Assembly (NCBI GenBank): GCA_021513695.1
Contig: CP084166.1
Coordinates: 2,496,001-2,560,000, forward strand
Length of the DNA: 64,000 bases
Origin: Candidatus Heimdallarchaeum aukensis
Lineage (GTDB): Archaea; Asgardarchaeota; Heimdallarchaeia; Heimdallarchaeales; Heimdallarchaeaceae
Direction: 5' to 3'
How positions within the stretch are numbered: position 1 is the stretch's first letter; each line of letters starts with the position of its first letter. The position numbers were made by a program, and so were the translations under genes. Under the pieces are notes generated by a model, which ran no database searches, had not been told where the DNA came from, and saw only the letters and a list, made by a program, of their open reading frames with translations. Positions 2,523 to 42,498 of this stretch are shown in pieces.

Positions 2523-2556
2523 AACTGCAACTCAATAGATTTATAAATTGTAAAAT

Positions 2557-2560
2557 GGAG
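2557..2560 (+). promoter_or_regulatory. Shine-Dalgarno-like GGAG 8 nt upstream of the GTG start at 2569
   Basis: 'aaaatGGAGctaaaaaaGTG'. The nearby ATG at 2555 is in another frame and terminates after 14 codons. Confidence 0.3.
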
Positions 2561-2568
2561 CTAAAAAA

Positions 2569-3108: not shown

Positions 3109-3118
3109 AGGAAAAAGA

Positions 3119-12800: not shown

Positions 12801-13994
12801 ATGGATGTTCTTCTTGCAATAGAATCTGTTCTTTTTGATGAGAAGAAAACTAGTACATACAAATTTGCTTTGGTAACTGCAATTATTGATTATGTCATAG
12901 AAAATCCAAACGAGTTTCCAGAAAACGGTTTTCACTATATACCAATTATTTATCTAGCAAAAAGGTGGTTATATTATTATTATCCATTGATGGTTTATGG
13001 GGAGAGAGGAGTTAGACAAGGATCAACACAGATATCTTTGCATCGATTTATTAGAGAATTTGTTGAAAAGCAAAGGGATAAGTCAATAAATTATTTTGAA
13101 CCTGAAGCAATTCTTAAAATTAAAGAAAGAATAGAAGATAATGAAATATTGGATAAGGAACTGATTTCTTTACTAATAAAGATAAGAAGAGTTATAATAA
13201 GCCAACCTTTACAATTCATTAAAATTGCCAGTAATAGTTTTATTCAAGAAGAGTTAGTAGAAGGAATAAAATTTAAAGATGAAACCTTTTCTCTCTTTGG
13301 ACTATATAACAGTTTACTAAAATATAATGAAAAAGAAAACTATCAAAGTATTAGATCGAAATCAACTAATTGGGAAGGAGAAAGAGGAGAACAAACTTGG
13401 TTGGAATTGGAAGCTGAAGAGACATTATTTATACAAATGGGACATTATACTTACAAAGAATTAGCAGAATCAAGATTTTTTATAAAAGATGCAATAATAA
13501 AAAGATGGTTAGAATATTCAGTAGAAAAGTATCTGCAAGCAGATGCTAAAGCAATTTATGCATTATTTTACGGACTAAAACTACATGAAAAAAGACTGGA
13601 AAGAGAATCAGGAAAAATACAGAAGATGAGAAAAATAGCCTTAACAGTTTTTAAACCGATGAAATGTATTTACTGTGGAAAAGAAATAAGAAAATTTGAA
13701 CTAGATCACCTAATACCTTGGTCAAAGTTTCCAGTTGATAGATTCTGGAATCTCTTTCCAGCATGCGAAAGTTGCAATAGAAAAAAATCAGATAAGATCA
13801 TAAGTATAGAAAGAAATATTCAAAGTAAAATAGCTGAATATTTAAAAGCGTGGCTGGAATATTTTATAGAAAATAAGGAAGAATTGGCAGTCCTAGGAGG
13901 AAAAGAAACTCACAATCTAAATATGGAAAATATAGAATCTTCAATTCATCTGTTATTAGAACAAATAAAAGAAATAAATCAGAATTTAATTTAG
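12801..13994 (+). CDS. HNH endonuclease with ~290-aa uncharacterised N-terminal region
   Basis: C-terminal 'CIYCGKEIRKFELDHLIPWSKFPVDRFWNLFPACESCNRKKSDK' has the CxxC...DH...N...CxxCN pattern. The N-terminus ('TSTYKFALVTAIIDYV') is unassigned. Confidence 0.85.
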   Translation: MDVLLAIESVLFDEKKTSTYKFALVTAIIDYVIENPNEFPENGFHYIPIIYLAKRWLYYYYPLMVYGERGVRQGSTQISLHRFIREFVEKQRDKSINYFEPEAILKIKERIEDNEILDKELISLLIKIRRVIISQPLQFIKIASNSFIQEELVEGIKFKDETFSLFGLYNSLLKYNEKENYQSIRSKSTNWEGERGEQTWLELEAEETLFIQMGHYTYKELAESRFFIKDAIIKRWLEYSVEKYLQADAKAIYALFYGLKLHEKRLERESGKIQKMRKIALTVFKPMKCIYCGKEIRKFELDHLIPWSKFPVDRFWNLFPACESCNRKKSDKIISIERNIQSKIAEYLKAWLEYFIENKEELAVLGGKETHNLNMENIESSIHLLLEQIKEINQNLI

Positions 13995-15423: not shown

Positions 15424-16245
15424 ATGAAAAAAGAGAAAGAGGACGCAATTAAAAAATTTGCGAATATTTTTTCAATGACAGCGGGAAATAGAAGTATATA
15501 TAAACACCTGGATTTTCTATTTAAAGATGATTATAATGGTTCAACAAAGAGAGATCAAATTATCTATTTATTAAAGAAATATTATCCTGATAATAAAAAA
15601 CTTATGTACATCTTAAGAGAGATTTTTGCAGTTCATAATGTTTCTTTTGTTAAACGTAATATTGATAAAATCAATGAATGCCTTATAAATTTTAATCTAT
15701 ATGTTGATGAAAATTTAAAACTTAATGTAATTGATTCTGTGATTATGTGTCTTAATGAGGCTGAATTCATAGTCAATTCTCAATTAGACAATATTCCGAA
15801 AAACTTACCCCAAATGCCAGAAGATATCCTGGAAAAAGGAAAAAATATGGCTTATGCATATTTACTTTTATATATCCTTGAAAATTATTTGAGGTTATTC
15901 ATAAGCCAAGCTAATAAGAATAAAAAATTAGAATACAGCGCTGGACAGAAAAAGAAAATAGAAAATAGAAAAAATCAAGAAGAAAAAAACACGTATCACG
16001 CTGTAAGAGGTACAAATGATCTCTTTTATCTTGATCTTAGTGATTTATGTTCTATAATTGTAAATAATTGGAATAGTTTTATTAAATATTTTCCAAATCA
16101 AAATTTCATCAAAACTAGGCTTGAGGAATTAGTAATAACACGGAATCACGTTGCTCATAATAGTATCATTTCTGACAATGATTTCAGGAGATTAATAACA
16201 TATTTTGAAGATATCCTTAATCAAATAGCCTTTTACTTTCATTAA
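15424..16245 (+). CDS. HEPN-domain protein (Swt1-like R-N-x-x-A-H motif) with unknown N-terminal region
   Basis: 'LEELVITRNHVAHNSIISDNDFRRL' near the C-terminus matches the Rx4H HEPN signature. Confidence 0.5.
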   Translation: MKKEKEDAIKKFANIFSMTAGNRSIYKHLDFLFKDDYNGSTKRDQIIYLLKKYYPDNKKLMYILREIFAVHNVSFVKRNIDKINECLINFNLYVDENLKLNVIDSVIMCLNEAEFIVNSQLDNIPKNLPQMPEDILEKGKNMAYAYLLLYILENYLRLFISQANKNKKLEYSAGQKKKIENRKNQEEKNTYHAVRGTNDLFYLDLSDLCSIIVNNWNSFIKYFPNQNFIKTRLEELVITRNHVAHNSIISDNDFRRLITYFEDILNQIAFYFH

Positions 16246-16317: not shown

Positions 16318-17919
16318 TTATTTCTCAAGTTCTTCTTTTATAGATGGAGTTACCCCCCCATGTTTCATTCTACGTTTCTTAATATTAACTAAAAGTGTAA
16401 AAGGAACAGATAATCCTGTAACCATAGCTTCACCAGTAGCTAGCCCTTTAATTGCTTCGAAATCTTCTTTTGTCATATGTTCTGCAATGTTTTGTACATA
16501 ATTTTGGTCTTTTGGATTCATCATTCTTAGTATAAAATGGGTGTTACATTGGCTTAAAATGTCTGCATCAACTTTAGAAGGTCTTTGTGATACAATACAC
16601 AATCCCATACCAAATTTTCTTCCTTCAGAAGCAACTCTTGCAATTATCTGTTTAGAAGCAGAAGGGCTTGTTCCTGGAGGAATGAAATTATGTGCTTCTT
16701 CAATAATTGTTAAAAATGGCTTTATTTTTGATTCATAACTTGTTTTCCTCAAATCAAAGAGTTTTCTTAGAATTAATCCTACTAAAGCTTGTTGATCAAA
16801 AGCTTCAATTCCTCCTAAGTCTAATATTGATATTTGCCCTTTCTTTACAAATTCTGAAACATCAGTTCCTTTTCCAAAAGTAAAATATGGTCTTTTCAAT
16901 AGTGCTCTCATTTTATTTTCAAGTGCTCTTCTTGTTCCTTTGTGTTCTATTCTTTCTATTGACTTTTCTATTAATTCCTCAATGCTGGTTGGAGGATTTC
17001 CATCAAGTGCTTCCATATGTATTTCATCCCAACCTCGATCTAATGATGCACTCTGAGCCTCTGAAATACCATAGTACTGTGAAAGTAAAGTCTTGATTTG
17101 CCATGTCTCTAACTCTGCTGGATGAAACTTAACACTAATTGTTACTCTTTTTCTTCCATGAACATCTTCAAACTTCTTTTCAAGTAAATAATTAAATTCT
17201 CCAGGAACAAATGTTAGTACTGACTTTGAGATTTCACGTGCTTCTCTTGAATCTTCATTAGGAATAAGTGTTGAAGAATATTCGCTATGAGGATCAATAA
17301 GAATGATGGGTAGTTTGAGATTATCTATTAAATATAATTCTTCGAGAATAACACCAACAGTATAACTTTTTCCTGCTCCTGTCATTGCTAAAACTGAAAA
17401 ATGATGTGTTACAAGTTTTTCATAATCTATATATGCTGGAACATTATGATTATCTCTCAAATTACCAATAATAATTGTTCTATCCTTAATGAAAAAAGAA
17501 GAAACAAATTCATCATCGGCCATATAAATAATTGTACCAGGATTAAGAGGGATTCGAGGTCTGACAAAGGCATTTCCTATTTTTCTTCCAATTATTAAAA
17601 CTGAAAATCCCATCATTCCAGCAATTTCAGAAGCTAATCCTAAATGTTCAATAGTCATAGAACTTGCCTCTAAGTCTTTTGTTCTAAGTTTTGGCATCAT
17701 ATTTTCATCTAATAGTAATCTGTTTTTTGTCCAAACAGATATAACTCTCCCTAGTAAAAATTCTTGTTTTTTATTTTCATCTAGATATTGTATTTTTACT
17801 AGTCTACCAATACCAATACTTGGCGAGTCTTTCAGAGCAATTGCTTCTACCAAGTATGGTGTTGTTTTTCCATAAACTATTCCAACAGGTATGTTTTTTT
17901 TCTCTCTATTTTGTTCCAT
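16318..17919 (-). CDS. herA: HerA-type (DUF87/FtsK-HerA superfamily) ATPase
   Basis: Walker A 'LAMTGAGKSYT', Walker B 'LTIIEEAHNFIP', 'GMGLCIVSQRPSKVD'. The N-terminal barrel-like region is 'PVGIVYGKTTPYLVEAIA'. Lies 9 nt downstream of the nurA-like gene. Confidence 0.85.
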   Translation of the reverse strand: MEQNREKKNIPVGIVYGKTTPYLVEAIALKDSPSIGIGRLVKIQYLDENKKQEFLLGRVISVWTKNRLLLDENMMPKLRTKDLEASSMTIEHLGLASEIAGMMGFSVLIIGRKIGNAFVRPRIPLNPGTIIYMADDEFVSSFFIKDRTIIIGNLRDNHNVPAYIDYEKLVTHHFSVLAMTGAGKSYTVGVILEELYLIDNLKLPIILIDPHSEYSSTLIPNEDSREAREISKSVLTFVPGEFNYLLEKKFEDVHGRKRVTISVKFHPAELETWQIKTLLSQYYGISEAQSASLDRGWDEIHMEALDGNPPTSIEELIEKSIERIEHKGTRRALENKMRALLKRPYFTFGKGTDVSEFVKKGQISILDLGGIEAFDQQALVGLILRKLFDLRKTSYESKIKPFLTIIEEAHNFIPPGTSPSASKQIIARVASEGRKFGMGLCIVSQRPSKVDADILSQCNTHFILRMMNPKDQNYVQNIAEHMTKEDFEAIKGLATGEAMVTGLSVPFTLLVNIKKRRMKHGGVTPSIKEELEK

Positions 17920-17928
17920 TTTCCTTCC

Positions 17929-19053
17929 TCAATGTAGTAATTTTCTCATTTTTGAATTAATCAAATCTCTGGCAATATCTGGTGCAATATCTCGTATCTC
18001 ATAAATTAGTTGGGTAAAGACTTTGGATGAAAATGATTTTGTTACTCTTGTAAGTTCGTCTACAAAAACTAAAGGATAAGGATATCCAACAACAGGTGAA
18101 ATCCGACATAAGTCATTAAATAATTCAAATAGTGAGTCCAATTTGGATAAATCCCATTTTGGAAATTCTAGATATAGTGCATGAGATGAATTAGGATACA
18201 AATAATAGGTACTACAAACACCTTCTCTTTTTAAGATTGAAATTGGGATTTCACCATGGGTGATACCAGCGACTGAAACATCTAAAGGTTCAAAATAAGC
18301 TGGTTTATCAGGCGAATATTTTCGTATTATATGTTGTAAAGCTATTCTTTCTCTCCAAGATTCATTTTCAATTAAATTTCGAAGAATTTCTAACTTTTCT
18401 TTATTAATATTTAATTTATCCATTACTTCCTTATCACACTTTAAAGCTCTTAGATATTTAGCTCTTCTCGCATCTTTTGATACTGCAATTACACTCACTT
18501 TACTCTTTTTTAAAGCTAAATTAAAAAAATCATTAGCATTTTTTTGATACTTTAGGAAAGCATCTGACAATTCTCTTATGTTAGTAACATTTACAGAAGT
18601 ATCAGGAAATGTGATAGCTCCATCAAGTAAAACAAGAGTTGGAATATCATCATCTATTTCATTAATTGCTTTTTTTGCAACATAATATTCTAAAGACTTC
18701 ATGAAAGTGGATGAAACTATTGAAGCTATATCTGAAGCTGGAGTATCAAAAAGTTGAATATCATTAAAATCAGTAATTTTTGCCTTTCCAAGTGTAATCA
18801 TAAAGGCTCGAGCAGAAGCAACAGCAAATCCCACTCCTTCTAAAGATGTATGATCCATCCCCCCATCAACGGCTATAACTCTCCAATTTTCATCTGAAAA
18901 TGATTTATATTTTGGAATATTTATGATAAGATCTTTTAAAATTTTGAAGTTATTGGCCTGTCTTCTAACTTTTGCAACAAGTTTTGGTACTTCTATTCTT
19001 CTATATCTATCAATTTCTTTCATAATAAGATTGAAATTATCCATTATCTTCAC
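17929..19053 (-). CDS. nurA: NurA-like nuclease
   Basis: 'WRVIAVDGGMDHT', 'LVLLDGAITFPD', 'VIAVSKDARR' and 'VGYPYPLVFVDELTRV' match conserved NurA blocks. Adjacency to herA supports the call. Confidence 0.72.
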   Translation of the reverse strand: MKIMDNFNLIMKEIDRYRRIEVPKLVAKVRRQANNFKILKDLIINIPKYKSFSDENWRVIAVDGGMDHTSLEGVGFAVASARAFMITLGKAKITDFNDIQLFDTPASDIASIVSSTFMKSLEYYVAKKAINEIDDDIPTLVLLDGAITFPDTSVNVTNIRELSDAFLKYQKNANDFFNLALKKSKVSVIAVSKDARRAKYLRALKCDKEVMDKLNINKEKLEILRNLIENESWRERIALQHIIRKYSPDKPAYFEPLDVSVAGITHGEIPISILKREGVCSTYYLYPNSSHALYLEFPKWDLSKLDSLFELFNDLCRISPVVGYPYPLVFVDELTRVTKSFSSKVFTQLIYEIRDIAPDIARDLINSKMRKLLH

Positions 19054-19783
19054 ATTCTTTTAGCTTGTTATCTAATTCTGGCCATTTCAGCCTTAGTTGA
19101 TGTAATCTGTCATTAAAATCTGTAGCACATCCAATTTTTTCGTCTTTAATCTCTAAAATGCCTTTTTCAATAAAAATTTCCATCCATTCTGATATTTCAT
19201 CAATCTCAGCTAATCTGTAAAAATCGCTTAGGGATATTGATTCTCCGAAACTCATCAAAAAGGTTAATGAACGTTGAATTCCATCCCATACTCTTTTAGA
19301 GAATTTTGGAAATGCAGCTTCAGATACTGTGATATTTTTGAATATCTCTTTAAATATGTTTTTTATCAGTTCTGTTTCAAGTTTTCTGTGATACTCTGTA
19401 AAGTATGGCAAACAATAGATAAAGTTGTCTCGAATGATAGCAATAATGTGTTTTTGGAATTTAATTGTTTTGTCTTTAGCTTCTATTCCAACGTTTCCAA
19501 CTTTCAAGATTTCTCTCTGATTTTCAAATTTGATTGAATCTAAAGTAACCTCACAACTTTTTATCGTTTTACAAAAATGTTCAATATCTATTTTAGAAAG
19601 AGCGATTATTATTCCTATGCGGTTACTAGTTATTTCTTTTTTATAGTCTTCAATTAATGAGTAAGTAATTAAGATACAATTTGATTGTTTAATATCATCT
19701 GTTCTTGAAAATTCAGTGTCTTCTAAAATAAATTTTAGAGGATTATATATTTGAGGAGGAATGAACATCTTCATACTTAACAC
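19037..19783 (-). CDS. hypothetical protein (248 aa), operon member
   Basis: Its 3' end overlaps the nurA-like start by 17 nt. Its start abuts the stop of the 1224-aa gene. No motif recognised. Confidence 0.5.
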   Translation of the reverse strand: MLSMKMFIPPQIYNPLKFILEDTEFSRTDDIKQSNCILITYSLIEDYKKEITSNRIGIIIALSKIDIEHFCKTIKSCEVTLDSIKFENQREILKVGNVGIEAKDKTIKFQKHIIAIIRDNFIYCLPYFTEYHRKLETELIKNIFKEIFKNITVSEAAFPKFSKRVWDGIQRSLTFLMSFGESISLSDFYRLAEIDEISEWMEIFIEKGILEIKDEKIGCATDFNDRLHQLRLKWPELDNKLKECEDNG

Positions 19784-22700
19784 CTATGTAGAAATTGTTT
19801 TAATAATTAGTTTTCTATTAATTAGATCTTCTATACAATTATCTACTTTATTTTTACCAAACTTTTCGTACAATTTTTCTAACTCTATTGCTCTCTTTGG
19901 TCCCTCTTTTCCTATCTCAAAGGCTATATCTTTATATTTAGTGAAATGTTCTTCTAAAAATTTATCTGTTACTTGTTTAAGATTGTACAAATCGTCAATA
20001 ACATTAAAAGATATTTCACGTTTTGAATCAACTTTATTAAGTAAACTAGGGATTTCATTAATACTTTTTACATCTTGATTTGATAGGATTAGATCTATAT
20101 TTCGTTCCTTTATCCAATTAAAAAAATTTGAAATTTGATTTAGAATTTTTTGTACATTGCGAAGCAGTATAGTTTGAATATCCTTATAAAAAGTTTCAAT
20201 TTCAGCACAAATTCGTGCAAACCAATCTAAGTATTTGTTAGCAAAAAACGGATCCTCTGGTAGTTCTGCTTTTAAGACATCATTTTCTAATTCTCTAAAC
20301 TCTCTCTCACCAATTTTATCTATGATTGATGAAATTTCAGTACTATTCTCAAAAACATAATCCCATTTTTTAATATCAACCAATTTTAGATTTTTTAAAG
20401 TGCTTAAGTATTTGTTAATAATTTCTGTTTGTTTTTCTAGTTTGGAATACAATGAAGATATTTGACTTTTAGCTTCAATGTGCTTGTTAAGTTCCTTCTT
20501 TATATTCTCAATTTTTACAATAGCTTTGTTTATTTCATTAATTTTCTTTATTGAATTTAATACACTAATGATTTTTTGAACAATATTATTAATTTTCGGA
20601 TCTGATTTTTTACTATGTTTATTACATTCTGCACTTATCTGTTTTAACAAAATTCTTAAGCTTTCTAGCTCACTTGTCACTTTTGAATAATCTTCTTCAT
20701 ATGCTTCAACTACTTCTGAAAAATCCCTCAATTTTTCATGTAATTTGCTTCTTTCATTGTAAATTTCAACTAATAATTCTCCTGTAATGTCAATAAAGTT
20801 TTTAGGTACTATTTCTTCAATATCTTTAGCATTTTTCTCAATTTCAGAAAGTTCATTTTCTAAATTCTTCAACTCTTGTAAAGTTTCAATTTCTAAATTG
20901 ATTGTGTGAGTATTTTCAGAAAAATCGACTCTAATAGTTTCTAACTCTGTAAACTTCTCAACTAAATTTAAATATTGTTTGGTTACCTCGTTAAGGTAAG
21001 TTCTATCCAATTTAGGATTGTAAAAATCAAATTTAAATTTCTTTTTTGCCTTTGGTGCTTGATCTATTAGAATACCTTTTACTGTTAGGAGTCTGAGGAT
21101 CTCTATTTCTTCTAAAATTGAACATGAAAGAGCATATCGTCTTCTTAATCTTATTCTTGCCAATTCAGGATCAATAGAATGAGCAAAAACAGAAAACAGT
21201 TCTATTATATCACGTTCTATTAAACTTAATTTTTGTACTTTATTGAACTTGAAAAGGCTACCAAAGCGTTCAAGTTTAGTTTTTAATTCGTTTATTTTTT
21301 GGTTGTTGGGTTCTTCTGAAACAATTTCTTCCCATAATTCATAATAAGTATCTAGTAGATCGTTAAAATCTCTTTTTTGGAAAATTCTATTGTCAAGAGG
21401 TATTCTATCCATTTTGTCAAATTCAGTTCTTATTTCCTTTTGAGTGTTGGTAAGCCAAGTAATGAAATTGTTTTTTATATCATCATGATTTTTCTCTTGA
21501 TGTGTTTCTTTTGGATATAAAATGTGAATTAGATCTTTTTTAGGAATTCCATACACTTTAATTAAAGGACTGTCTCTAGGTTTTAAATCCACTATTCCAG
21601 TTAATTCTTGTGATAGTTTTTCATGTTTGATTATTTCGTCTGTTTCTTCAGGCACCAAAAATGTAATTGCTTCAAAAAGTTCTGAACTTTTTACACATAA
21701 CTTTAGGTAGGTTTTAAGAATATCTTTTATATCCTTCTCTATTGATGGCTTAGCAAGCATGATTGCATTTTTTGGAGAGTCAATTGCACATACCAAATCG
21801 TTAATATTCTTATCTTTAGTTCCTAAAACGGAAATATAATGCATTTTTAGTATTTCTTTTAGATTTTTTGAGAATTTAACTGATATTTTTCTAGAAGATT
21901 CATTATCAAATTGCTGTAATGCTTTTCTCTCACCACTTATTTCTATACCTCTTATCTGTTTTTCTTTAATTTCATTTTTCCATCTTTGTTCAGAAATAAG
22001 TATATATGATTTTGCTTTGTTTTCAAACAATTCTCTTAATTCTTCATTTAACGTTTTCAGATTTTTTTTCTTAACTGCAATATAAGTGTTATATTCGCTA
22101 ACTGGAACTGTAGTAGGATCGTAATTATTCTTTACTAAATCATTATCAATATATGTTGCATACTTTTTAATAAGTCTGATATTTCTGTATTGACTGTCTT
22201 TTTCGCTGTATTCGATGTCTTTAACTATTTCTTCGTAATTTTCTATATTATCTTCATAATTAATAATTAATAAATCATCAACAAGACCTGAATCGATTAA
22301 CCGGTTTTTAAAGAATTCTACCAAATTTTGATCGATGTAATTTTTAAGTTCAGCATCAGAAATTGCAGAGTGGTCAAAATAAATTCGAAAAAGTAATTTG
22401 TAGATTGTTTCTTCATTAATGTTTATTTCTTTTGCAAACTTTCTTGCTACCTCAATTAACGAGGAATTAATCTTTCTTAACGCATTTTCAAAATTCTCAT
22501 TATTTAATCCTAAGATTTCAGGTTTTTTTATTATCTCTTCAAAATGTTCTAAGGTGAATTGAATTATTATTTCTTCTTTTCTTTCTAAGGTTTTTTTTGC
22601 TAAATACACCACTAGTCTATCCATCAATTTTATTAACATTCTTGTATTAACATAGGTATATTCATGTACTAAGGCAGAAAGCTTAGCTAAAGCTAAAGCA

Positions 22701-23458
22701 GTTCCTTCACTAAATGGATAATAAGGGTTTTTTAAATTAATTAAATTCCTTAAATCTTGATTTGCGTAAAAGTAAATGTAGCGACGAACTAATCCAGCCA
22801 TCTTCCAATCTTCAGGCTCTGGAATTATTATTTTGAATCCAATTAATCTATTATCACTTATATCCGGGTGGTAACTTAAGACATAATTCCAAGATGGAAC
22901 ACCAAAACCTAAAACTAGCATAATATTTTTGAAATCACTAAACCTATCATTTCTTTCTAAAAATCTCCTAAAATCTTTAAAGAATCGATCCGCATCGTTT
23001 CTTGATATCTGATTATTTGAAATCATTCTAGGAATATCATCTATTTCATCGATAAAAATAATAACTCGTTTTGAGGTATTTTCATCTTTTAAATTTCTAG
23101 ATAATTGTTTTTTTAAAAAAGAGTATAAATTTAGTGTGTCTCTACTAAATTGAGTGAAAATTGATATTATACCTATACTTTTAGTATATCTAGCAAGATA
23201 TTTCATAAGTTCAGATTTTCCTGAACCATATTCACCAATTACTGCTAAAGCAATATTGTCCCTATAATTAGTTGATTCTTCTAGTTTTCCGATAGCTCGT
23301 ATTAAAGCATTTCTTACCCCTACTGGAGGTGGAACATCTTCGTCCAATCCTTTAGTAACCCCCATTGGATTAAAAGGATTACTTGTAAAACCAACCTTTT
23401 TGAATAAATTCATTTCGTTACTCATATTTAAAATCCTCCTTAATTTCAGTAATCCCAT
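19784..23458 (-). CDS. large P-loop NTPase (N-terminal AAA/ORC-like core) with ~900-aa Lys/Glu/Ile-rich helical, probably coiled-coil, extension
   Basis: Walker A 'GEYGSGKS' (aa 75-82) and Walker B 'VIIFIDEIDD' (aa ~131-140) lie close together at the N-terminus. The rest is low-complexity helical sequence. The true start is possibly Met12 or Met16. Confidence 0.65.
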   Translation of the reverse strand: MGLLKLRRILNMSNEMNLFKKVGFTSNPFNPMGVTKGLDEDVPPPVGVRNALIRAIGKLEESTNYRDNIALAVIGEYGSGKSELMKYLARYTKSIGIISIFTQFSRDTLNLYSFLKKQLSRNLKDENTSKRVIIFIDEIDDIPRMISNNQISRNDADRFFKDFRRFLERNDRFSDFKNIMLVLGFGVPSWNYVLSYHPDISDNRLIGFKIIIPEPEDWKMAGLVRRYIYFYANQDLRNLINLKNPYYPFSEGTALALAKLSALVHEYTYVNTRMLIKLMDRLVVYLAKKTLERKEEIIIQFTLEHFEEIIKKPEILGLNNENFENALRKINSSLIEVARKFAKEININEETIYKLLFRIYFDHSAISDAELKNYIDQNLVEFFKNRLIDSGLVDDLLIINYEDNIENYEEIVKDIEYSEKDSQYRNIRLIKKYATYIDNDLVKNNYDPTTVPVSEYNTYIAVKKKNLKTLNEELRELFENKAKSYILISEQRWKNEIKEKQIRGIEISGERKALQQFDNESSRKISVKFSKNLKEILKMHYISVLGTKDKNINDLVCAIDSPKNAIMLAKPSIEKDIKDILKTYLKLCVKSSELFEAITFLVPEETDEIIKHEKLSQELTGIVDLKPRDSPLIKVYGIPKKDLIHILYPKETHQEKNHDDIKNNFITWLTNTQKEIRTEFDKMDRIPLDNRIFQKRDFNDLLDTYYELWEEIVSEEPNNQKINELKTKLERFGSLFKFNKVQKLSLIERDIIELFSVFAHSIDPELARIRLRRRYALSCSILEEIEILRLLTVKGILIDQAPKAKKKFKFDFYNPKLDRTYLNEVTKQYLNLVEKFTELETIRVDFSENTHTINLEIETLQELKNLENELSEIEKNAKDIEEIVPKNFIDITGELLVEIYNERSKLHEKLRDFSEVVEAYEEDYSKVTSELESLRILLKQISAECNKHSKKSDPKINNIVQKIISVLNSIKKINEINKAIVKIENIKKELNKHIEAKSQISSLYSKLEKQTEIINKYLSTLKNLKLVDIKKWDYVFENSTEISSIIDKIGEREFRELENDVLKAELPEDPFFANKYLDWFARICAEIETFYKDIQTILLRNVQKILNQISNFFNWIKERNIDLILSNQDVKSINEIPSLLNKVDSKREISFNVIDDLYNLKQVTDKFLEEHFTKYKDIAFEIGKEGPKRAIELEKLYEKFGKNKVDNCIEDLINRKLIIKTIST

Positions 23459-24176
23459 AAGTGCCAGGTATGATGTTCTCGACTCCTACACCAAATTTAA
23501 ATTGAATCTGAAGATCATCTTTCAGTGTTTTTAATAGATTAAAAGCAGTTTCTAACGTCATTACTTTATTTGATTCTAGCACCTTCTGGGTAAAGCACTC
23601 TATGATGTCATATGTTCTCAATTGCTTTATTTTGGCTTCTTTTGAGATAATTCCTATACATTTTTTAAACAAACTAACATATGTTCTTGTTGTCATCTTG
23701 CTTTCATAATAAATTCCTTCTGATTCCTTTTTTAGTAATGAGCTCATTATTGCTAATGCTGTTAAAGTGTTAAATGTAGGTTCAGGAAGATTCCAACCAT
23801 AACTGAACTGTTTCTCCTTGATTAAATTAAAAAGGGATTTTTTACTTTCAAAAAATTTATCACTACTTTCATCTAAAAAATCAGTTAAAACTCTATATTG
23901 AGGTATCTGACTCATTAAAATGTTATGAAGCAAATCTGAAAACTTATCTTTTTCATTACGAAATTCAAACAATTTTTGACCATTTTGTGTGAATTTTAGA
24001 TATTTATTTTTCTCTTCTTCAATAATTCCAAGCTGTTTCATGAGTCTTCTAACATCATTACCTGATGTATCAAATTGTTTAAACTGTTCTACTGGAATTT
24101 TCCCTTTATATAGACCTATGGCTGTTAAACACCTCATAAATGAACCTTCAGTAACTTGAGGTAATGATTTAATCAT
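23418..24176 (-). CDS. hypothetical protein (252 aa), first gene of the HerA/NurA-containing operon
   Basis: Long ORF overlapping the next gene. No motif recognised. Confidence 0.5.
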   Translation of the reverse strand: MIKSLPQVTEGSFMRCLTAIGLYKGKIPVEQFKQFDTSGNDVRRLMKQLGIIEEEKNKYLKFTQNGQKLFEFRNEKDKFSDLLHNILMSQIPQYRVLTDFLDESSDKFFESKKSLFNLIKEKQFSYGWNLPEPTFNTLTALAIMSSLLKKESEGIYYESKMTTRTYVSLFKKCIGIISKEAKIKQLRTYDIIECFTQKVLESNKVMTLETAFNLLKTLKDDLQIQFKFGVGVENIIPGTYGITEIKEDFKYE

Positions 24177-24259
24177 CGAGTGTTTATTTAATTTTTATTA
24201 TATTTATTTTATGGAAAAAGTATGTTTTTTTTAAAAAAATATTATCTCTTTTAAGAAAA

Positions 24260-25267
24260 AAGCATGTCCAAAAATTCTTTTTCACCAACTATACAGTCCG
24301 AAGGAGTAAACGGTAGTTATAACAGAGGAGAGAACTGTACAAGGTAGAAAGGATGGTAGAGGGTAAGCGATCAAGTATCGGGGGAAGAGAGAGTTTGAGG
24401 AGACCAAAGACATGTTCAATACTACTACGATACTCGGGGTGGTGATTATGACGATAGAGACCAGGGTAGAGACGATGAGCTTGAACTATTGGTCCAAGAG
24501 GAGGAGGAGAGGGATAACGAGCATTACTTTTTGGGGGAATAACAGGAAAAAAGGAATGTTGGCTAAGAAGACCGACGATATTTTCTGTCCAGTAGGCACA
24601 GTCTCCATAGAATCGCAAGAAAGGTCTCAAGAGTGCAGAAGGAAGTTTCTGCCATAACAAACCGAAGACTTTACTATCGTGAGTGTTACTAGCAGAATGA
24701 GTAAGAGAGACTATAGCTCGAGAGGGTAAACCAACTATAAGGTGTATCTTCCAGAAAAGTTTAGTTTGGAGGTTTTCTTTAGTCCTCCTCTTGCCCACTT
24801 GAGAAAACGCCAAACAGAAGCTTGACGGATTTTAAACCCTGAACTATCCACCGCCATAGCTTTCAACCCTTTTTTCCTCACTATTTTCCTACCTAAATCT
24901 ATTATCCACCGCTCCAGCAACTCACTTTCTGTCGCTCTCCACACTGCATGAAAAGTAGATTTGGAAGGAATCTTCTTCATCCACCCCTCTTCTATCAAAA
25001 AAGCGCATAAAGACAACTTTTCCTCTAACTTCCTCCAAGCAATTCCTTCTATTCTAGCAATGATCGCTAAAGCCAGTATCACCCATCTTTCTGCTATTCT
25101 CTTTCTCCCTCTCTTGCTTTCTCTCGGTTCCTCTTTCACCAGTTTCTTAAGGAAAGGTTCATTAATGATTATGAATTCTCTTGCTTTGTGGGGGTCTATG
25201 ATCTGAAAGAAATTCATACTTCCGACATAAACCCCCACATTAATAAAAATTAATTTTTGGACATGCT
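24260..25267 (-). mobile_element. IS5/IS4-superfamily insertion sequence (~1.0 kb), visibly GC-richer than its flanks
   Basis: Perfect 16-bp IRs: AGCATGTCCAAAAATT (24261-24276) and AATTTTTGGACATGCT (25252-25267). Direct repeat TTAAGAAAA at 24251-24259 and 25268-25276. Confidence 0.8.
24289..25238 (-). CDS. DDE transposase split into two overlapping ORFs (24735-25238 and 24289-24813); the frameshift is either programmed or inactivating
   Basis: 'AMAVDSSGFK' (D) is in the first ORF. 'WKIHLIVG...THDSK', 'FYGDCAYWT' (D) and 'YRSSIEHVFGLLK' (E, K at +7) are in the second. The overlap contains 'CTAAAGAAAAC'. Confidence 0.7.
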
Positions 25268-25282
25268 TTAAGAAAATTTAAA

Positions 25283-26515
25283 TTAGTTTATTTTGTTTAT
25301 ATCTTCATTTTCTAAATAGTAATCTTGAATTATGTCAGAAAGATTGTAATTTTTAAAATATCCATTATTTAACTCTATTATGAATGGAATATATTTTCTT
25401 AATGGAGAGGTCTTTAAATACGTTTTTAACTGTTCTAACTTATCGCTAGTAAAGGGTAACATATTTTTTATTCGTTCAAATTCGTTTAAATAAACGTAAG
25501 CATTATGTAAAGCTCTTAAGTTAAAGCTTTTATCTAAATTCTCTCTTGTATGAGGATTCACTCCGCATTCGCATTTTAAAAATTCTTCTTCATGTTCTTC
25601 TTCGAGAACTTTTCTTGATTTATTTTTTCTAGGAAATAGAAATCTATCTGACAGTCCTGGTAATTGTATCGCGCCATGAGCAGCTTTTAATCTCCATCCA
25701 ACAGAATCAACAGAATCAGCTCCCGCTCCATAAATGAGATTCATTGTTGTAGTTCCTCCAATGCCAAATACATGAAGTTTACTTTTAGGAAACAATTTTT
25801 TGACTAATGCCGTTGCAGCAAAAACGAACATTGGGGCATTTAACCTTTTATCTTTTGAATGTGTTGGAATATTCTTTGAACCTTTGCTATATTTTAATAA
25901 TGGAACCATTGAACCTAATCCTATCCACTTTGGATACGAATTAGTATAATCTTTGTAAATCTCTAGGATTTTTTTAGAATAATTAATAATTTTTCTAAAT
26001 GAATGACCGTGAACGACAGGTATTAACGTTGTATCCAGATTTGCTTGTAACATCTTTTCTAAATTATCTAGTGTTTTTTTTTGCCTGTAATAGTTTTTGG
26101 AATATGTGGCTGTAGGATCTAAAGGATGATCTAAAACTACTGCATAATCCGGTGATGCCTTATTATACAATTTTATTAGATCTTCAACTTTAATTGAGAT
26201 ACCTTGTTTTTTTTGAAAAATAAAACCTCCACTATCCATCATAACATTAGAATTAATTTCTAAAAAATTTTTTAATCCTTTTTTCTCAATTTTTTCTCTA
26301 ATTTTTGGCTTGAAAATAATTTCTGCTCCATTTACTAAAATTCCTACATTTTTTGAAGTAAACTTGGCTATACTTTTGACTTTAGGTTGTGGATTTATAG
26401 GTGTTCCAAACCAAAAAAAAAGGTCATTTTTACCAGAGTTATTATCGAATATGTCACTTACTATCTGTTGCTCAGTTTTTTCATCATCAGAAGAAATTTT
26501 ACATGTAGTAATCAT
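25283..26515 (-). CDS. tRNA-guanine transglycosylase (TGT)-fold protein, DpdA/TgtA5-like candidate
   Basis: 'MMDSGGFIFQ' corresponds to the TGT DSGGFQ motif. 'LHVFGIGGTTTMNLIYGAGADSVDSVGWRLKAAHGAI' corresponds to the GxGxP...GxDxFD...A..G block carrying the second catalytic Asp. 'CECGVNPH' is only a partial Zn motif. No PUA-like C-terminus was seen. Confidence 0.65.
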   Translation of the reverse strand: MITTCKISSDDEKTEQQIVSDIFDNNSGKNDLFFWFGTPINPQPKVKSIAKFTSKNVGILVNGAEIIFKPKIREKIEKKGLKNFLEINSNVMMDSGGFIFQKKQGISIKVEDLIKLYNKASPDYAVVLDHPLDPTATYSKNYYRQKKTLDNLEKMLQANLDTTLIPVVHGHSFRKIINYSKKILEIYKDYTNSYPKWIGLGSMVPLLKYSKGSKNIPTHSKDKRLNAPMFVFAATALVKKLFPKSKLHVFGIGGTTTMNLIYGAGADSVDSVGWRLKAAHGAIQLPGLSDRFLFPRKNKSRKVLEEEHEEEFLKCECGVNPHTRENLDKSFNLRALHNAYVYLNEFERIKNMLPFTSDKLEQLKTYLKTSPLRKYIPFIIELNNGYFKNYNLSDIIQDYYLENEDINKIN

Positions 26516-27122: not shown

Positions 27123-29267
27123 ATGGTTCAACCGAAGAAGCTTTATAGTTTTTTAGATTCAGAATTAAAAACTTATCAGTTTCCAGAATTTCAAAGACCA
27201 TATGTATGGGGCCAAAATGAGATATATGATTTAATTGATACAGTAGTAAGGGGATATTCTGTTGGATTGATACTACTTTGGGAAGGAGATAGTAATGCTC
27301 TGAATTATTCTCTTCGAGATTGGGTATCTCCTCCAAGCAATAGTGATCGTTTAAGACTAAAGTACATTCTAGATGGACAACAAAGAATAAAAACACTTTC
27401 AAGAACCTTCGGAATTGATTTTTTAGTCAATAATGGTTTTATGTCAGAAGTAAAAACTGATTCAATTCCAAGAGCACTCTCCAAATACCCATATTTTATT
27501 TTTCCATCTCGATCAAATTTCTTAAATGTTACAAAAAACAAAAAAAATCGCTGGGTTAGTTTCGATATTTTCTTAGATTTAGCTAAAGTTGACTTAAGTA
27601 AAGAAAAATGGTATGAACGCATATCTCCTGATTGCTGGGTTTCTTTATTGGATATTATGAGGATGAATTGGAAGAAGGAAGAAATAGCAGAATTTAGCAT
27701 ATTAACTGAGAAAAAAGGTCCACTTAATAATTTAGAATTTTTTATTGTTGAGTATAAAAATGGTAAAATTGAAAGAGATAACCCAAACAACAAGTGGTAC
27801 AAAAAACAAGAGGATGGTGTTCAAGATACAAACTTAGTAAAACCAATTAGATTCATTTACATTAACTCATTAGAAAATATAGAAGATATAATTAAATATT
27901 TTAGATTATATTACCAGTTAAACGGAAGTATTCAAATTTCTCAAGATAAAAATTTTCTACATTTAGAACTTAGGCGAGAATTGATTTCACTACTAAAAAT
28001 AAAGCCAACAGATATAGATTTATTATTTCAAGAAACAGAATCAGCAGAACTTACACAGTTAACGCATTACTTTTCTAGGTTAAATAGAGCTGGTGTGTTA
28101 CTGGATGTAGTTGATTTGCTTATAGCAAAAATTTATGGTGAGAGAAATGAGCCGTTTCCTTTGCGCAATATCTTACAGAACACCTTTAGCGATGATACTC
28201 TTCGAAATTTTTTTAATCTAAAAGATGATGATGACCCAAGTACAAAATTTAAACTATTATTACAAGTAGTTTCTCTTTACTTTTATAACAAACTATCTGA
28301 TGATGCAATATTAAAAATAACGCAGCAAAATTTGTTAGATTTTGAGTTTGAGAAATTCTCGATGACATCTATTCCAATAAATAAGAAAGTATTAATACGT
28401 GAATCATGGAGAAAAACAATAGAATTTTTGAGAGAGAAACTTGCTATAAATTCTATTTCTAAATTAAGGTATGACCGGTTGTTTGTTATATTAATGGCAC
28501 TTAATTATCATGTTTATAAAGAAGAAATACTAAACAAAAGCTATAGAGACTTATTTGAGAATGAGTTTGATGAGATTCTCAAAGTTTGGATACTAAGGGA
28601 ATCTATATCGTTCAATCTAGCAACTGGAAGTAATAAACCTCCTGAAAGATATAAAACATTTATAAATAAGAGTATACCTTCTATAATACGATGCATTGAA
28701 AATGAAGAAGAAATAAGTAGAAAAGAAATATTAGATGAAATATTCGTTCCCACTTTGTCAGATGAAAACTTATCAGATAAGGAGTTTGGAAAAGCTCTAA
28801 TGAGTATTTTGTTGAAAGAAAATGGGATTTACGATTTCTACGATAAAACATTGTCAAAAAAGATCACAACTTGTTCTCAAGTTATTGAAGATACAATAGA
28901 GCTACATCATATTTTTCCAAAAAATATGGTTAATGATGCCAATTTAAAGAGGGTATTTGATATAGGATTAAACTTGACACCTTTAAAGAAAAAGACTAAT
29001 AGTGATAAACTTGGTAATAAACACCCATTTAAATATATTCAAGAAATGATGGGGGAGATTCAAGATGAAGCTATATTCAACGAAATAATGAACTCTCATT
29101 GGTTGCCAGAATTAGAATGGTGGCGTGATATTATGCAAAAATACGATTATCCAGATAATGAAGATGCAATAAAAAATGTTGAGAAAATAAAAGAGCAATT
29201 TGATTTATTTATTGAAAAAAGAAAAGAAATTGTTTTAGATAAAATCAAACCCCTCTTATACTTATAG
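27123..29267 (+). CDS. GmrSD-family type IV (modification-dependent) restriction enzyme: N-terminal DUF262, C-terminal DUF1524
   Basis: 'YQFPEFQRPYVWGQNEIYDLIDTVVRGYSVG' and 'DGQQRIKTL' indicate DUF262. C-terminal 'IELHHIFPKN...GLNLTPLKKKTNSDKLGNK' indicates the DUF1524 His-Me finger. Confidence 0.8.
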   Translation: MVQPKKLYSFLDSELKTYQFPEFQRPYVWGQNEIYDLIDTVVRGYSVGLILLWEGDSNALNYSLRDWVSPPSNSDRLRLKYILDGQQRIKTLSRTFGIDFLVNNGFMSEVKTDSIPRALSKYPYFIFPSRSNFLNVTKNKKNRWVSFDIFLDLAKVDLSKEKWYERISPDCWVSLLDIMRMNWKKEEIAEFSILTEKKGPLNNLEFFIVEYKNGKIERDNPNNKWYKKQEDGVQDTNLVKPIRFIYINSLENIEDIIKYFRLYYQLNGSIQISQDKNFLHLELRRELISLLKIKPTDIDLLFQETESAELTQLTHYFSRLNRAGVLLDVVDLLIAKIYGERNEPFPLRNILQNTFSDDTLRNFFNLKDDDDPSTKFKLLLQVVSLYFYNKLSDDAILKITQQNLLDFEFEKFSMTSIPINKKVLIRESWRKTIEFLREKLAINSISKLRYDRLFVILMALNYHVYKEEILNKSYRDLFENEFDEILKVWILRESISFNLATGSNKPPERYKTFINKSIPSIIRCIENEEEISRKEILDEIFVPTLSDENLSDKEFGKALMSILLKENGIYDFYDKTLSKKITTCSQVIEDTIELHHIFPKNMVNDANLKRVFDIGLNLTPLKKKTNSDKLGNKHPFKYIQEMMGEIQDEAIFNEIMNSHWLPELEWWRDIMQKYDYPDNEDAIKNVEKIKEQFDLFIEKRKEIVLDKIKPLLYL

Positions 29268-30499: not shown

Positions 30500-33400
30500 T
30501 CATTCTTCACAAGGCCCACCTACTATTTTTGAGTATGGGCAAGTTCTACATCTACTATACTCATCATCCTTATTTGGGTTTTTCACAAAGCCTTGTTCCA
30601 CATCAATTTTTATTCTGTTTTTAATAGCATCTTCAACTTGAGATTTGAAAGATTCAAGGTTATGATTTATTTTTACAACTTTGAATTGGGGATGTACAAA
30701 AACAATCAATGTTCCAATATCTTTGATATTTGGATAATTTTGTTTTAAAAGCCAAGCATATGTTGTTAGTTGATTCTCATACATTGTGTAGAGATCGCTG
30801 CTTTCATTTGGTGGATTTCCAGTTTTATAGTCAATGATTATCCATTTTTCTTCTTCAATTTTAAATAAAAGATCTATAGTTCCTGTTATTATAACGGGTT
30901 TATAATCATCGTAGGAAAATTTTGCTTGTAACTGATATTCTGTGAAAAAATCGGATGTTCTCTTATTGAAAAGATTTGAAATTGTTTTGTCTTTTAGATA
31001 AGAATTTATTATTTGTATAAGATGTTGTTTCGCATTATCAACTTGAATTTTACTAAGAATATTTAAAATAAGTTCAGAATCTATTTTTTCTTCTGAATTT
31101 ATTGCTTTATGAAATGATTCCATGAACAAATGGACTATATCTCCCCATTCTGCTGCTGAATTGATCCCCTTTGGAGGTGTTGTTCCTGGGGGTAAATGTT
31201 CCTCTCCAAATTTGCCAGATAAATAATAATTATCCACTTTATTTAAAACTGCATAGGCATATCTTCGGGGACAGAAAAGTAGATTGTAAAGTTCTTTTGC
31301 TGCAATAGATATGGGTACAAATTGTATATTTGCTAGTGTATTTAGTTTTTTAATTTTACTTCTTTTAACTTCTTTCTCATAATCTTTTTCTCTAAAAGAT
31401 AGAGGTTGATCTTCTTTAGGTGATGGCTTAATGATCTCTATTTTAATCTCTTCAACAATTTCTTTTTCTTCTAAACTATCGATAACTAGATTCTGTTCAT
31501 TCCAATTTAATGTTACATAAAAACAATCTCCTTCTGGGTTAAAATCTCTATTATTTAAAACTCCAAGTTTGTTTTGAATAGTATACATCCACCTAGTATA
31601 TTTATTTCCCTTAGGTTCTATAAGACCAAGATGAAAAATAAGATGATCTCTTGCTCTTGTAGTCGCAACATAAAAAAGGCGCCAAAATTCAGCAATATCT
31701 TTTTTGATAAATTGATTTAAAGGGTTGTTAAACTTAAAAACACCATTGTCTTCTCTTTTGTTACTAACCCAAAAGATTCCAGACGATAGATTACCAGGTA
31801 TTAATCTCTCTCCTGGGCCATTAATATCTTCTACTGTTTCTACATTAATATCAATTGGTTTAATAGCCACACCAATCTCTCTATCTAAAAATATTCTTTC
31901 CCTATAAGGGTCTCTTAATACATCTTTCACAAGCAGATCTGGAATAATTACTATTGGGAATTCAAGTCCTTTGCTTCTATGTATTGTCATTATTTTTACG
32001 CTATTTTTTGATTCGTAATCACCGATTTTTATGGTAGAATAATCTTGTTTTCCAGCATAAGCTCTATCTCGTAATACTTTTATTTTATAAACAAATTCAT
32101 TATACGAAAGTAGTTCTTCTTCTTCCCATTCTTTAATAATTTCAGTCAGTAATCTGAGATTTGCTAGAGTCTCAAAAGAACTTGAGGATGAAGAGAGAAA
32201 AACGATGTCTAATGCGCCATGATTAATTATTTTATCGATAAGGACTGCTTTTTCACCTTCTCTATCCCATCTTAGGTCATTTCTGAGTTTCAATAGCGCT
32301 TTTAATCTAATTAAATCTGTCTCCTTAATAATATTCTTTGAAGGTTGATTTTCTATTTCCATAAGTGCTTTTCTGAGCATAAAATTATGTGAAGCTAAAA
32401 ATCGAAGTGTTTCATCAGATATTGCAATTAAAGGAGAACGAAGTATATGTAATAATGCATATTTGTTGTGAGGGTTTGCAAACCAATCTAAAAAATCAAC
32501 AATTAAAGAAACTTCATGTTGTGCAAATAAAGAATTATCCAAAATCAGAGAATAGTTGATGCCGTATCTATCAAATAGCCTCAGAAAAGGATAGATCTTA
32601 CTTCTTCTTCTGAATAGTAAAGCAATATCTCCTGGCAAGGGAGATCTCTCTATTATTTCATCCTTTTCTTCTTCATAAATATTCAATCTGATTTTTTGGT
32701 CAAGAATATCCTTTATGCAAGAAACTATAGCTTCAGCATCTTTAGAATCCCAGTCAGCCCAATATATTGGCTTATTATTTGGTCCTTGGGTAAAAATGGT
32801 GTGGATGTTAGCAGTTTCTTTTTTATTTTTAGCGGTATTCCTTTTTGGAATTAACGGTACATAATCTACTTTTATTTTTCCAATTCTACCTGTAACATTA
32901 GAATCAAAAATCTCGCTGAATAGTGAATTAATGAGATAGATAATATCTGGTTGACTTCTAAAATTAGAAACCAATGCAACATATTCAGGATTCTTTATTT
33001 CAAAGGGCAAATCAATTTCATTTTTTGTTTTTGCATATTCTATAATTGAAGAGAATATTCCTGGCTCTGCTGATCTCCATTGATAAATTGACTGTTTAAC
33101 ATCTCCTATAATCATAATATTATTCTTTGTTCTAATTGTATCTTCATTTCGAATTAAATGTGAAATGATACGACACTGTACATAACTTGTATCTTGGAAC
33201 TCATCAATTAAAATATGATCAAACTTTAAGTTTAGACTTTTAACCCATGGACTTGTAGGATTTTTTTCTAAATATTCCCACAACATATATGCGATATCAA
33301 TATAGGTCAAATGTCCTGTTTTTTTAGTTTTTTCTGTATAAAGTTCGTCATATTTTTCTAGTAATAAGGTAAATTTATCGTATCTATCGCGCATCTCATA

Positions 33401-42479: not shown

Positions 42480-42498
42480 AAATATACTCTTTAAACAC

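Follow-up and report, generated by a model that had tools for sequence, protein, structure and literature searches.

Which nucleic acid does a TGT-like transglycosylase modify when its gene lies in a defence island and its product has no PUA domain? This question is raised by a stretch of 64,000 nucleotides from the Asgard archaeon Candidatus Heimdallarchaeum aukensis (contig CP084166.1, positions 2,496,001 to 2,560,000 of the forward strand; the whole stretch is called the window in the following), where such a gene was found on the minus strand at 25283..26515. It encodes a protein of 410 aa. The original prediction, based on the sequence alone, had described it as a stand-alone, DpdA/TgtA5-like enzyme that acts on DNA rather than tRNA and either serves self-marking or is carried by a mobile element. 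Our analysis revealed a conserved six-gene operon that begins with this gene and the continuity of which is concealed by an insertion sequence (IS). We see a somewhat better than even chance that the enzyme is a DNA-guanine transglycosylase self-marking DNA for a HerA-NurA restriction module. Such a system would represent restriction-modification-like (R-M-like) immunity, akin to Dpd and BRC and a member of neither.

The open reading frame (ORF) and the motifs first noticed in it are real: MMDSGGFIFQ is located at residues 92-101, GIGG at 251-254, GADSVDSVGWRLKAAHG at 265-281 and CECGVNPH at 315-322. Pfam PF01702 matches the protein with E=3e-15 (56.6 bits compared to a gathering score of 26.3), and its AlphaFold2 (AF2) model adopts the TIM-barrel TGT fold, matching ArcTGT, bacterial TGT (bTGT) and DpdA. 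In the structural comparison, values of 27.0 and 16% were obtained for bTGT, 26.1 and 22% for DpdA (7UI4), 25.8 and 21% for ArcTGT, which gave the longest alignment of the set, and 19.6 and 14% for Cap10. In Pfam scans covering all window ORFs of at least 120 aa, TGT was the sole match in this protein, with neither a PUA domain nor DUF5591, and the last 73 residues past the HN motif were modelled as helices, in agreement with the earlier remark that a PUA-type extension is missing.

The proposed affiliation with DpdA, on the other hand, did not hold. The protein scored 29.2 bits with the NCBIfam DpdA model NF041059 (cut-off 200) and at most 31 bits, over partial regions, with the PADLOC DpdA models. 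It is nearer to ArcTGT, whose NCBIfam model TIGR00432 gave 72 bits and thus also failed its cut-off of 350; a profile of the family scored 123.6 bits against the ArcTGT chain 1iq8 of the Protein Data Bank (PDB) compared to 41 bits each against bTGT and DpdA. In a neighbour-joining tree rooted on Pyrococcus horikoshii ArcTGT and calculated without bootstrap, the family stands on a long branch apart from ArcTGT, and the window-type proteins form one subclade.

As ArcTGT is the best match by both profiles, the protein could be a paralogue directed at tRNA, either an ArcTGT reduced to a minimum or the N-terminal part of an ArcS/ArcTGT that has been split in two, and its neighbourhood would then be coincidental; split ArcS, with TGT-like and C1 domains on separate genes, is known in archaea (PMC10516641). 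We regard this as highly improbable, given a score far under the ArcTGT equivalog cut-off, the lack of PUA, C2 and C3 domains in protein and operon, the separate long branch in the unbootstrapped tree and the patchy, accessory distribution of a gene that here resides in a defence island. Synteny with NurA, HerA and ATPase genes at 17 of 23 loci in distant phyla (see below) likewise argues against coincidence. ArcTGT/TgtA (PDB 1IQ8) remains the closest profile relative of the catalytic domain and shares its Asp residues, the preQ0-type pocket and the position of the Zn motif. In contrast to ArcTGT, the window protein, at ~20% identity, has no C1, C2 or C3/PUA domains, carries a His in place of Gln169 and a W-R-x-K-A-A-x-G-x-I-Q segment, and belongs to a subclade in which the third Zn cysteine is replaced; its gene family is accessory and not universal.

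Residue-level alignment to PDB 1IQ8 places D94, D129 and D270 at D95, D130 and D249 of the P. horikoshii enzyme. In an alignment of 115 homologues, D94, D129, H169, D270 and H337 are invariant, and all residues binding the guanine or deazaguanine base are conserved, so that the Asp blocks initially noted are confirmed. Based on these correspondences, D94 (in DSGGF) is predicted to be the general acid/base and D270 (in GADSVDS) the nucleophile, while D129 and H169 would bind the base. In the alignment with DpdA, the counterpart of the invariant H169 is the His of the motif 'vAHGW', which we take, assuming the residue numbering, to be the base-reading His181 of PMC10164549; ArcTGT has Gln at this position. 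The base pocket of the family, G-S-[LM]-V-P, is similar to GGVVP of ArcTGT and GGMVP of DpdA, and it appears to resemble a preQ0-type pocket rather than the preQ1-type pocket of bTGT, which ends in Glu235. Together, H169 and the GS[LM]VP pocket lean towards DpdA-like chemistry. Just past the nucleophile lies a family signature, W274-R275-x-K277-A-A-x-G281; its extended form, W-R-x-K-A-A-x-G-x-I-Q, is invariant and family-specific. The spacing from D270 to C315 is 45 residues and therewith ArcTGT-like. The ORF is a TGT-superfamily member on a distinct, uncharacterised branch, and its retained active-site residues predict a catalytically competent enzyme.

The reduced Zn motif CECGVNPH was also confirmed. 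C315 and C317 align with ArcTGT C279 and C281, and H337 with H307, while the third Zn cysteine of ArcTGT, C284, has no counterpart. This third Cys is present in 110/115 homologues; the window protein instead reads C315-x-C317-G-V-N320-P-H322...H337, with Asn followed by Pro-His where the Cys would be expected. The window protein shares the pattern CxCG[IV][NK]PH with the two homologues closest to it; another homologue, encoded in an operon of the same type, has CRCPIHKN, with His at the third-Cys position. As the alteration is common to the closest homologues, it is, judged from these alignments, a conserved feature of the subclade and not a lesion, and His322 probably takes over as Zn ligand.

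The gene is not stand-alone. On the minus strand, the TGT-like gene is followed by five co-directional genes, tightly packed or overlapping, at 24176..16318(-), giving the order TGT-like, p252, 1224-aa ATPase, p248, NurA, HerA, and these six genes are a conserved archaeal operon. The continuity between genes 1 and 2 is masked by an IS element of ~1.0 kb (24259..25269, minus strand) with 24-nt terminal inverted repeats. It is flanked by a perfect 6-bp target-site duplication, AAGAAA, at 24253-24258 and 25270-25275, its inverted repeats match to 92%, and the DDE_Tnp_1 transposase gene is broken into two ORFs that overlap (24289-24813, 24735-25238). The perfect duplication and the closely matching repeats indicate a recent insertion. 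Free of this IS, the six-gene operon is also present in other contigs of Heimdallarchaeia. Without the IS, the spacer measures ~90 bp, compared to 120 bp in the homologous IS-free spacer of a Heimdallarchaeaceae metagenome-assembled genome (locus L001), the TGT protein of which is 57% identical and which carries the six genes in the same order as the window. A second locus, L002, encodes the same TGT protein as L001, also shows the gene order of the window and otherwise matches the IS-free L001, with an unrelated rve-type IS (2110-3191) in the very same spacer. Independent insertions into one spacer in two genomes could mean that separating the first gene from the nuclease module is tolerated or even selected for. 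In locus L003, the same six genes are found with the TGT-like gene relocated to the HerA end.

These insertions, together with the Zn motif, bear on the possibility of local decay, by which the IS would have uncoupled the downstream genes, the Zn change would have crippled the enzyme and the locus would be functionless in this genome. The position of the IS between genes 1 and 2, the lost third Zn cysteine and the independent rve IS in L002, compared to the matching L001 without one, are in line with this. We consider decay distinctly unlikely, however, since all six ORFs are intact and at full length, the exchange of Cys for Asn or Lys with Pro-His is common to the closest homologues (another having His at the Cys position), and the perfect duplication and 92% matching repeats point to a recent event. 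Moreover, the IS has the same orientation as the operon, so that read-through is possible.

The partner genes suggest a link of the enzyme to DNA. The last two, encoded side by side, are a NurA-family nuclease (17929..19053, minus strand, 374 aa; Pfam NurA E=1.5e-11, 44.7 bits compared to a cut-off of 21) and a HerA-family hexameric ATPase/translocase (16318..17919, minus strand, 533 aa) with HAS barrel, DUF87 and HerA_C domains (Pfam DUF87 E=6e-36; PADLOC HerA 188 bits). Both remain below the NCBIfam equivalog cut-offs, HerA with 207 compared to 970 and NurA with 23 compared to 400. The giant ATPase (19784..23458, minus strand, 1224 aa) consists of an N-terminal AAA+ P-loop domain with Walker A GEYGSGKS (75-82) and Walker B VIIFIDE (132-138), a long helical or coiled-coil region at ~810-1050 and a C-terminal region. 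Its Pfam matches are weak P-loop hits, namely AAA (E 3e-4) and BrxC_BrxD (E 3e-3, residues 72-108), and among 1.84 billion representatives we found 14 relatives, none of them of the ~1400-aa type that is described below.

The gene p252 (23418..24176, minus strand, K9W45_11255) encodes a 252-aa protein without a Pfam match, whose family counts 3 members among 5.8 billion clusters. Its AF2 model, obtained from a 3-sequence alignment (pLDDT 85.7, pTM 0.87), shows three tandem winged-helix domains. The best Foldseek match was the FokI recognition domain, with an E-value of 1e-3 that is marginal, as are those of the other matches, and a probability of 0.99; N.BspD6I, SelB WH2-4, STK19 and ORC WH were further top matches. 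Based on this model, p252 is a putative DNA-recognition, specificity-like subunit. For the 248-aa product of p248 (19037..19783, minus strand, K9W45_11245), the start of which overlaps the end of the preceding gene, Pfam and NCBIfam scans detected no family; it is conserved in four window-type operons only. We also considered p252 and p248 as divergent DUF5591 or DUF6884 proteins or as split-off domains of the ~1400-aa ATPases and rejected this, as all hhalign probabilities were below 1%.

An HNH endonuclease (12801..13994, plus strand, 397 aa) is a tentative extra component. It is 33% identical (E 3e-59) to an HNH protein encoded directly upstream of the L003 operon (L003 644-1861) and, in L022, also matches a gene (16899-17600) located close to the TGT-like one. 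In the window, HNH and HerA are separated by a HEPN gene and a copy of an rve IS. From these matches, the HNH gene may be a displaced seventh component of the system.

In order to trace the wider family, one genome per species was scanned, which resulted in 31 mostly archaeal loci, and the ORFs of all loci were labelled by phmmer with seed proteins. Archaeal loci were found in Heimdallarchaeota, Kariarchaeota, Bathyarchaeia, Nitrosopumilus, Thermoplasmata, Archaeoglobales, Methanodesulfokora, Hydrothermarchaeum and Aenigmatarchaeota, and the few bacterial ones in Crocinitomicaceae, Aureliella, Gemmataceae and an alphaproteobacterium. On the archaeal side, the loci represent no fewer than eight lineages. 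At 17/23 informative non-redundant loci, HerA, NurA and a giant P-loop ATPase are encoded within 10 kb of the TGT-like gene; these include Asgard, Bathyarchaeia, Nitrosopumilus, Thermoplasmata, Archaeoglobales, Korarchaeia, Hydrothermarchaeum, Thermococcus and some bacterial loci. The dominant architecture, here called main-type, comprises NurA, HerA, a ~1400-aa P-loop ATPase, DUF5591 and the TGT-like gene, to which QueC and DUF6884 are added at some loci. Its ATPases are laid out like the 1224-aa protein, with GEWGEGKT and hhFIDE motifs, weak AAA_16/STAND matches and a C-terminal winged helix, which the C-terminal ~100 aa of the 1224-aa ATPase weakly resemble. NurA of the window and NurA of the main-type operons were aligned by hhalign with a probability of 87%. 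One example of this architecture (L008) is present in the complete genome of Thermococcus argininiproducens (CP080572, ~1.395-1.416 Mb), encoding HerA, a 1561-aa ATPase, NurA, DUF5591, the TGT-like protein and DUF6884. The distribution is patchy and accessory, with, for instance, a single Thermococcus species among the matches.

Other arrangements were observed as well, and three of them again involve DNA. The Nitrosopumilus locus L026 (8498-12571) combines QueC, DUF5591 and TGT with a PLD nuclease and a STAND ATPase, the TGT-like gene of L022 (6893-12750) is flanked by an AIPR/Mrr gene and two DNA methylases, and in L018 (7477-11014) a prim-pol/D5 helicase lies beside it. In a third architecture, found repeatedly in metagenomes (L004-L007; P0007, reported on 62 contigs), 2-3 HEAT-repeat proteins are encoded ahead of the TGT-like protein, NurA, HerA and a 1400-aa protein, and a convergent DUF6884 gene closes the row. 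Paired TGT-like genes occur in tandem in L014 (9902-12313) and convergently, on opposite strands, in L030 (9941-12396).

The relatives also connect the family to 7-deazaguanine chemistry. A DUF5591 gene adjoins or overlaps the TGT-like gene at 15/30 full-length loci, while QueC was found at 5/30 and the DpdC-like DUF6884 at 4/30 of them. DUF5591 is the C1 catalytic core of archaeosine synthase, and the copies in the family loci carry PC-x3-KP[YF]-x2-S-x2-Y, close to the ArcS motif PC-X3-KPY-X2-S-X2-H (PMC10516641). In E. coli, a viral TGT-fold protein, DpdA2, together with an ArcS-core protein led to dG+ in DNA (PMC10516641). DUF6884 is a distant relative of YaaA/DUF328 (PMC11701544), the family to which DpdC belongs (PMC12839542). 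The window itself contains no QueC, DUF5591/ArcS, DUF6884 or second TGT gene, as judged from the Pfam scans and from tblastn in all frames over the 64 kb. In this respect, the initial observation that synthesis genes are missing nearby was correct; the accompanying statement that no dpd-like genes are adjacent overlooked the conserved six-gene operon behind the IS. Archaea normally make preQ0 for tRNA archaeosine, so that an operon drawing on this supply would need no dedicated synthesis genes.

The lack of any base-synthesis or base-tailoring gene in the window-type operon would also suit a different role, in which the TGT-like protein, as an effector or a sensor, would attack guanines of the invader and leave abasic sites or covalent adducts as entry points for HerA-NurA. 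It is established from archaeal resection that NurA-HerA requires DNA ends or nicks, the TGT mechanism proceeds via a covalent enzyme-nucleic acid intermediate (PMC10164549), and base-excision restriction enzymes are described as an established class (PMC10273834). An enzyme excising G without regulation would, however, poison its host; furthermore, QueC, ArcS-core and DpdC-like genes in the sister operons favour the making and insertion of a modified base, and the residues binding guanine or deazaguanine are all conserved. We therefore consider an effector of this kind unlikely.

The QueC genes adjoining some family members bring a further possibility into view, namely the handling of nucleobase-protein conjugates, whereby a deazaguanine placed on a partner such as the giant ATPase, and not on bulk DNA, would regulate the nuclease module. 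The TGT-fold protein Cap10 acts with the QueC-like Cap9 in anti-phage defence (bioRxiv 10.1101/2025.04.06.647259), and type IV CBASS Cap9/Cap10 (deazaguanylation) thus offers a likeness, with a TGT-fold protein in immunity that is sometimes encoded beside a QueC-family gene. Cap10, however, is marked by a CD-NTase partner and by loss of the Zn site and the tRNA lid, while no CD-NTase is encoded at the loci studied here and the family keeps the Zn site in 110/115 members, with a His-substituted version in the window subclade. Such a role appears very unlikely to us.

Marking of host DNA remains the best-supported reading, as the original prediction had proposed, at the level of what gene context and conserved residues can suggest. 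The conserved synteny with NurA, HerA, a giant AAA+ ATPase and a three-winged-helix protein argues for DNA as the target, and the syntenic ArcS-core, QueC and DpdC-like genes of the relatives argue for a deazaguanine as the base. In a first step, the TGT-like enzyme would exchange guanine for preQ0 in double-stranded host DNA, with preQ0 taken from the supply that the host presumably maintains for tRNA archaeosine. The chemistry would be the double displacement of TGT enzymes, with D270 as nucleophile, D94 as acid/base and D129 and H169 reading the base. In a second step, the three-winged-helix protein p252 would probably assist in the choice of sites. In a third step, the giant ATPase would scan DNA and, upon meeting unmarked foreign DNA, license the HerA translocase and the NurA nuclease to degrade it; targeting and discrimination would thus be supplied by the winged-helix protein and the ATPase. 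In the main-type sister systems, the inserted base would probably be processed further, e.g. to archaeosine.

Several points weigh against this model. We infer the DNA substrate, the identity of the base and the self/non-self logic alike. The sequence profile places the protein nearer to the tRNA enzyme ArcTGT than to DpdA, and its subclade has lost the third Zn cysteine. The window-type operon is devoid of the ArcS-core, QueC and DUF6884 genes that link the sister type to deazaguanine chemistry. The homology between the 1224-aa and the ~1400-aa ATPases is weak (hhalign 67%; no cross-match by phmmer), and no methylase-type control or modification-sensing domain was recognised in the giant ATPase. 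Finally, the IS may exert polar effects on the five downstream genes.

Compared to the Dpd system of Salmonella Montevideo (DpdA/B/C and DpdD-K), the window system shares a TGT-fold enzyme without a tRNA-binding domain, encoded in a defence island near ATPase, helicase and nuclease genes, with a conserved Asp triad and base-reading His. Relatives of the window gene are accompanied by the DpdC-related, YaaA-like DUF6884, and the proposed logic of a deazaguanine self-mark combined with restriction would be the same. In contrast to DpdA, the window protein lacks the ~128-residue Ins8 insertion that bears the Zn site (PMC10164549). The Pfam scans revealed neither the ParB-like ATPase DpdB nor DpdC (DUF328) in the window. 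SNF2-type DpdE/F/J helicases are missing, and the putative restriction module comprises HerA, NurA and the giant AAA+ ATPase. The hosts of the window family, unlike those of Dpd, are mainly archaea.

BREX-Related Capture (BRC; Rakesh & Krishnan, NAR 2026, PMC12839542) resembles the window operon in that a HerA translocase and a TGT homologue are combined with a large AAA+ ATPase and a tripartite winged-helix DNA-binding protein, and its authors also propose deazaguanine self-marking without DpdB or DpdC. A HerA/FtsK translocase is universal in BRC (PMC12839542), and HerA is encoded in the window operon as well. BRC is further defined by PglZ, DUF6079 (BrxC-like), a STAND NTPase (BrxB-like), DUF4007 (BrxA-like) and often GNAT (PMC12839542). 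Pfam found no match to PglZ in the operon or elsewhere in the window and none to a STAND NTPase or GNAT; DUF6079 was not matched either, the 1224-aa ATPase giving the weak P-loop hits mentioned above, nor was DUF4007, p252 being modelled as three winged helices. The slot of effector or nuclease is taken here by NurA, which is absent from the text and supplements of PMC12839542, and the taxa differ, as BRC was reported from haloarchaea, Methanosarcina, Chloroflexota and others (PMC12839542).

A viral parallel is provided by DpdA2 and ArcS2 of Vibrio phage nt-1, a pair that leads to dG+ in DNA (PMC10516641); main-type operons likewise pair the TGT-fold gene with a stand-alone DUF5591 carrying PC-X3-KPY-X2-S. 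While the phage pair is viral and anti-restriction, the window family is coupled to nuclease and ATPase genes, and the window operon lacks DUF5591. No relatives were found in IMG/VR viral contigs. Viral carriage is thus not supported. Of the suggested mobile-element carriage, residence in a mobile defence island is supported.

The juxtaposition of HerA and NurA is that of the archaeal HerA-NurA end-resection module, and HerA has been recruited to defence repeatedly, as in the bacterial systems SIR2-HerA, DUF4297-HerA, DndH and MADS mad8. In contrast to the repair operon, the window operon has no Mre11/Rad50 and its proteins score below all NCBIfam HerA and NurA equivalog cut-offs. It also has no SIR2 or DUF4297 effector, and it couples HerA and NurA to a TGT-fold enzyme.

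The setting in a defence island was confirmed by genes for PLD, CARF-like, ResIII and NERD, HNH, HEPN, GmrSD, UvrD/PDDEXK, type III-like R-M and HepT proteins. Divergent from the TGT-like gene lies a GmrSD/DUF262 gene (27123-29267, plus strand). Members of this family are typically modification-dependent type IV restriction enzymes, which is of interest next to a gene whose product putatively modifies DNA. A PLD nuclease gene followed by one for a CARF/Csa3-like protein occupies 990-3108 on the plus strand. Two inverted rve-type IS copies, at 6347-7109 (plus) and 14611-15372 (minus), share 92.5% identity over 763 bp. Between them lie genes for a ResIII helicase (7409-9922) and a NERD protein (10709-12403), a 273-aa ORF and the HNH gene at 12801-13994, so that this segment looks like a composite transposon. 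The HEPN_Swt1 gene next to it is located at 15424-16245 (plus).

On the other side of the operon, 30500-37667 (minus) encodes an AddA-like UvrD helicase-PD-(D/E)XK nuclease of 1240 aa and an overlapping 1151-aa partner without a Pfam match; an Asgard archaeon thus carries an AddAB-like pair. As L001 and L004 also have UvrD/PDDEXK genes close to the TGT-like one, these and the window gene were considered as orthologous components. This was rejected, since tblastn found no similarity; the AddA-like gene of the window is not orthologous to those of L001 or L004. The pair is followed by a type III-like R-M cluster (38666-45574, plus) with a 997-aa ResIII/SWI2-SNF2 helicase, two small ORFs and an 853-aa N6_N4 DNA methylase, and by genes for AAA_14/DUF4143 (47353-48540, minus) and a HepT toxin (55492-55923, minus). 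The GC content is ~0.26-0.30 up to ~52 kb and ~0.34-0.37 between 52 and 60 kb. This shift suggests that the island has a boundary near 52 kb.

The genome paper of H. aukensis does not mention the locus, and no description of a TGT/HerA/NurA operon was found in the literature, the coverage of which was incomplete, so that this is absence of evidence only. Beyond the window, we see a chance close to, and just short of, even that the operons represent a new, mainly archaeal immune family. An ArcTGT-derived DNA transglycosylase would write a 7-deazaguanine mark, and HerA-NurA under the control of a giant AAA+ protein would destroy unmarked DNA; the mark would be preQ0 in the Heimdallarchaeial systems and of the archaeosine type where an ArcS-core is encoded.

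7-Deazaguanines have been described in the DNA of bacteria (Dpd) and viruses, while in cellular archaea, to our knowledge, they are known in tRNA only. If the model is true, this would be the first 7-deazaguanine modification of genomic DNA in cellular archaea, among them the Asgard lineage that is closest to eukaryotes, and a second, independent invention of Dpd-like immunity. It would further represent a new mode of use of the HerA-NurA resection machine in immunity. The operon also introduces new components, i.e. a three-winged-helix specificity-like protein and AAA+ proteins of 1200-1500 aa without a characterised relative. The complete published genome of Thermococcus argininiproducens makes this species the most practical organism for testing DNA for deazaguanine. 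The combination of a PUA-less TGT with intact active site, HerA-NurA and a giant ATPase, spread over Asgard archaea, Thermoproteota, Thermoplasmatota, Thermococci and others, constitutes a testable candidate for archaeal genomic deazaguanine.

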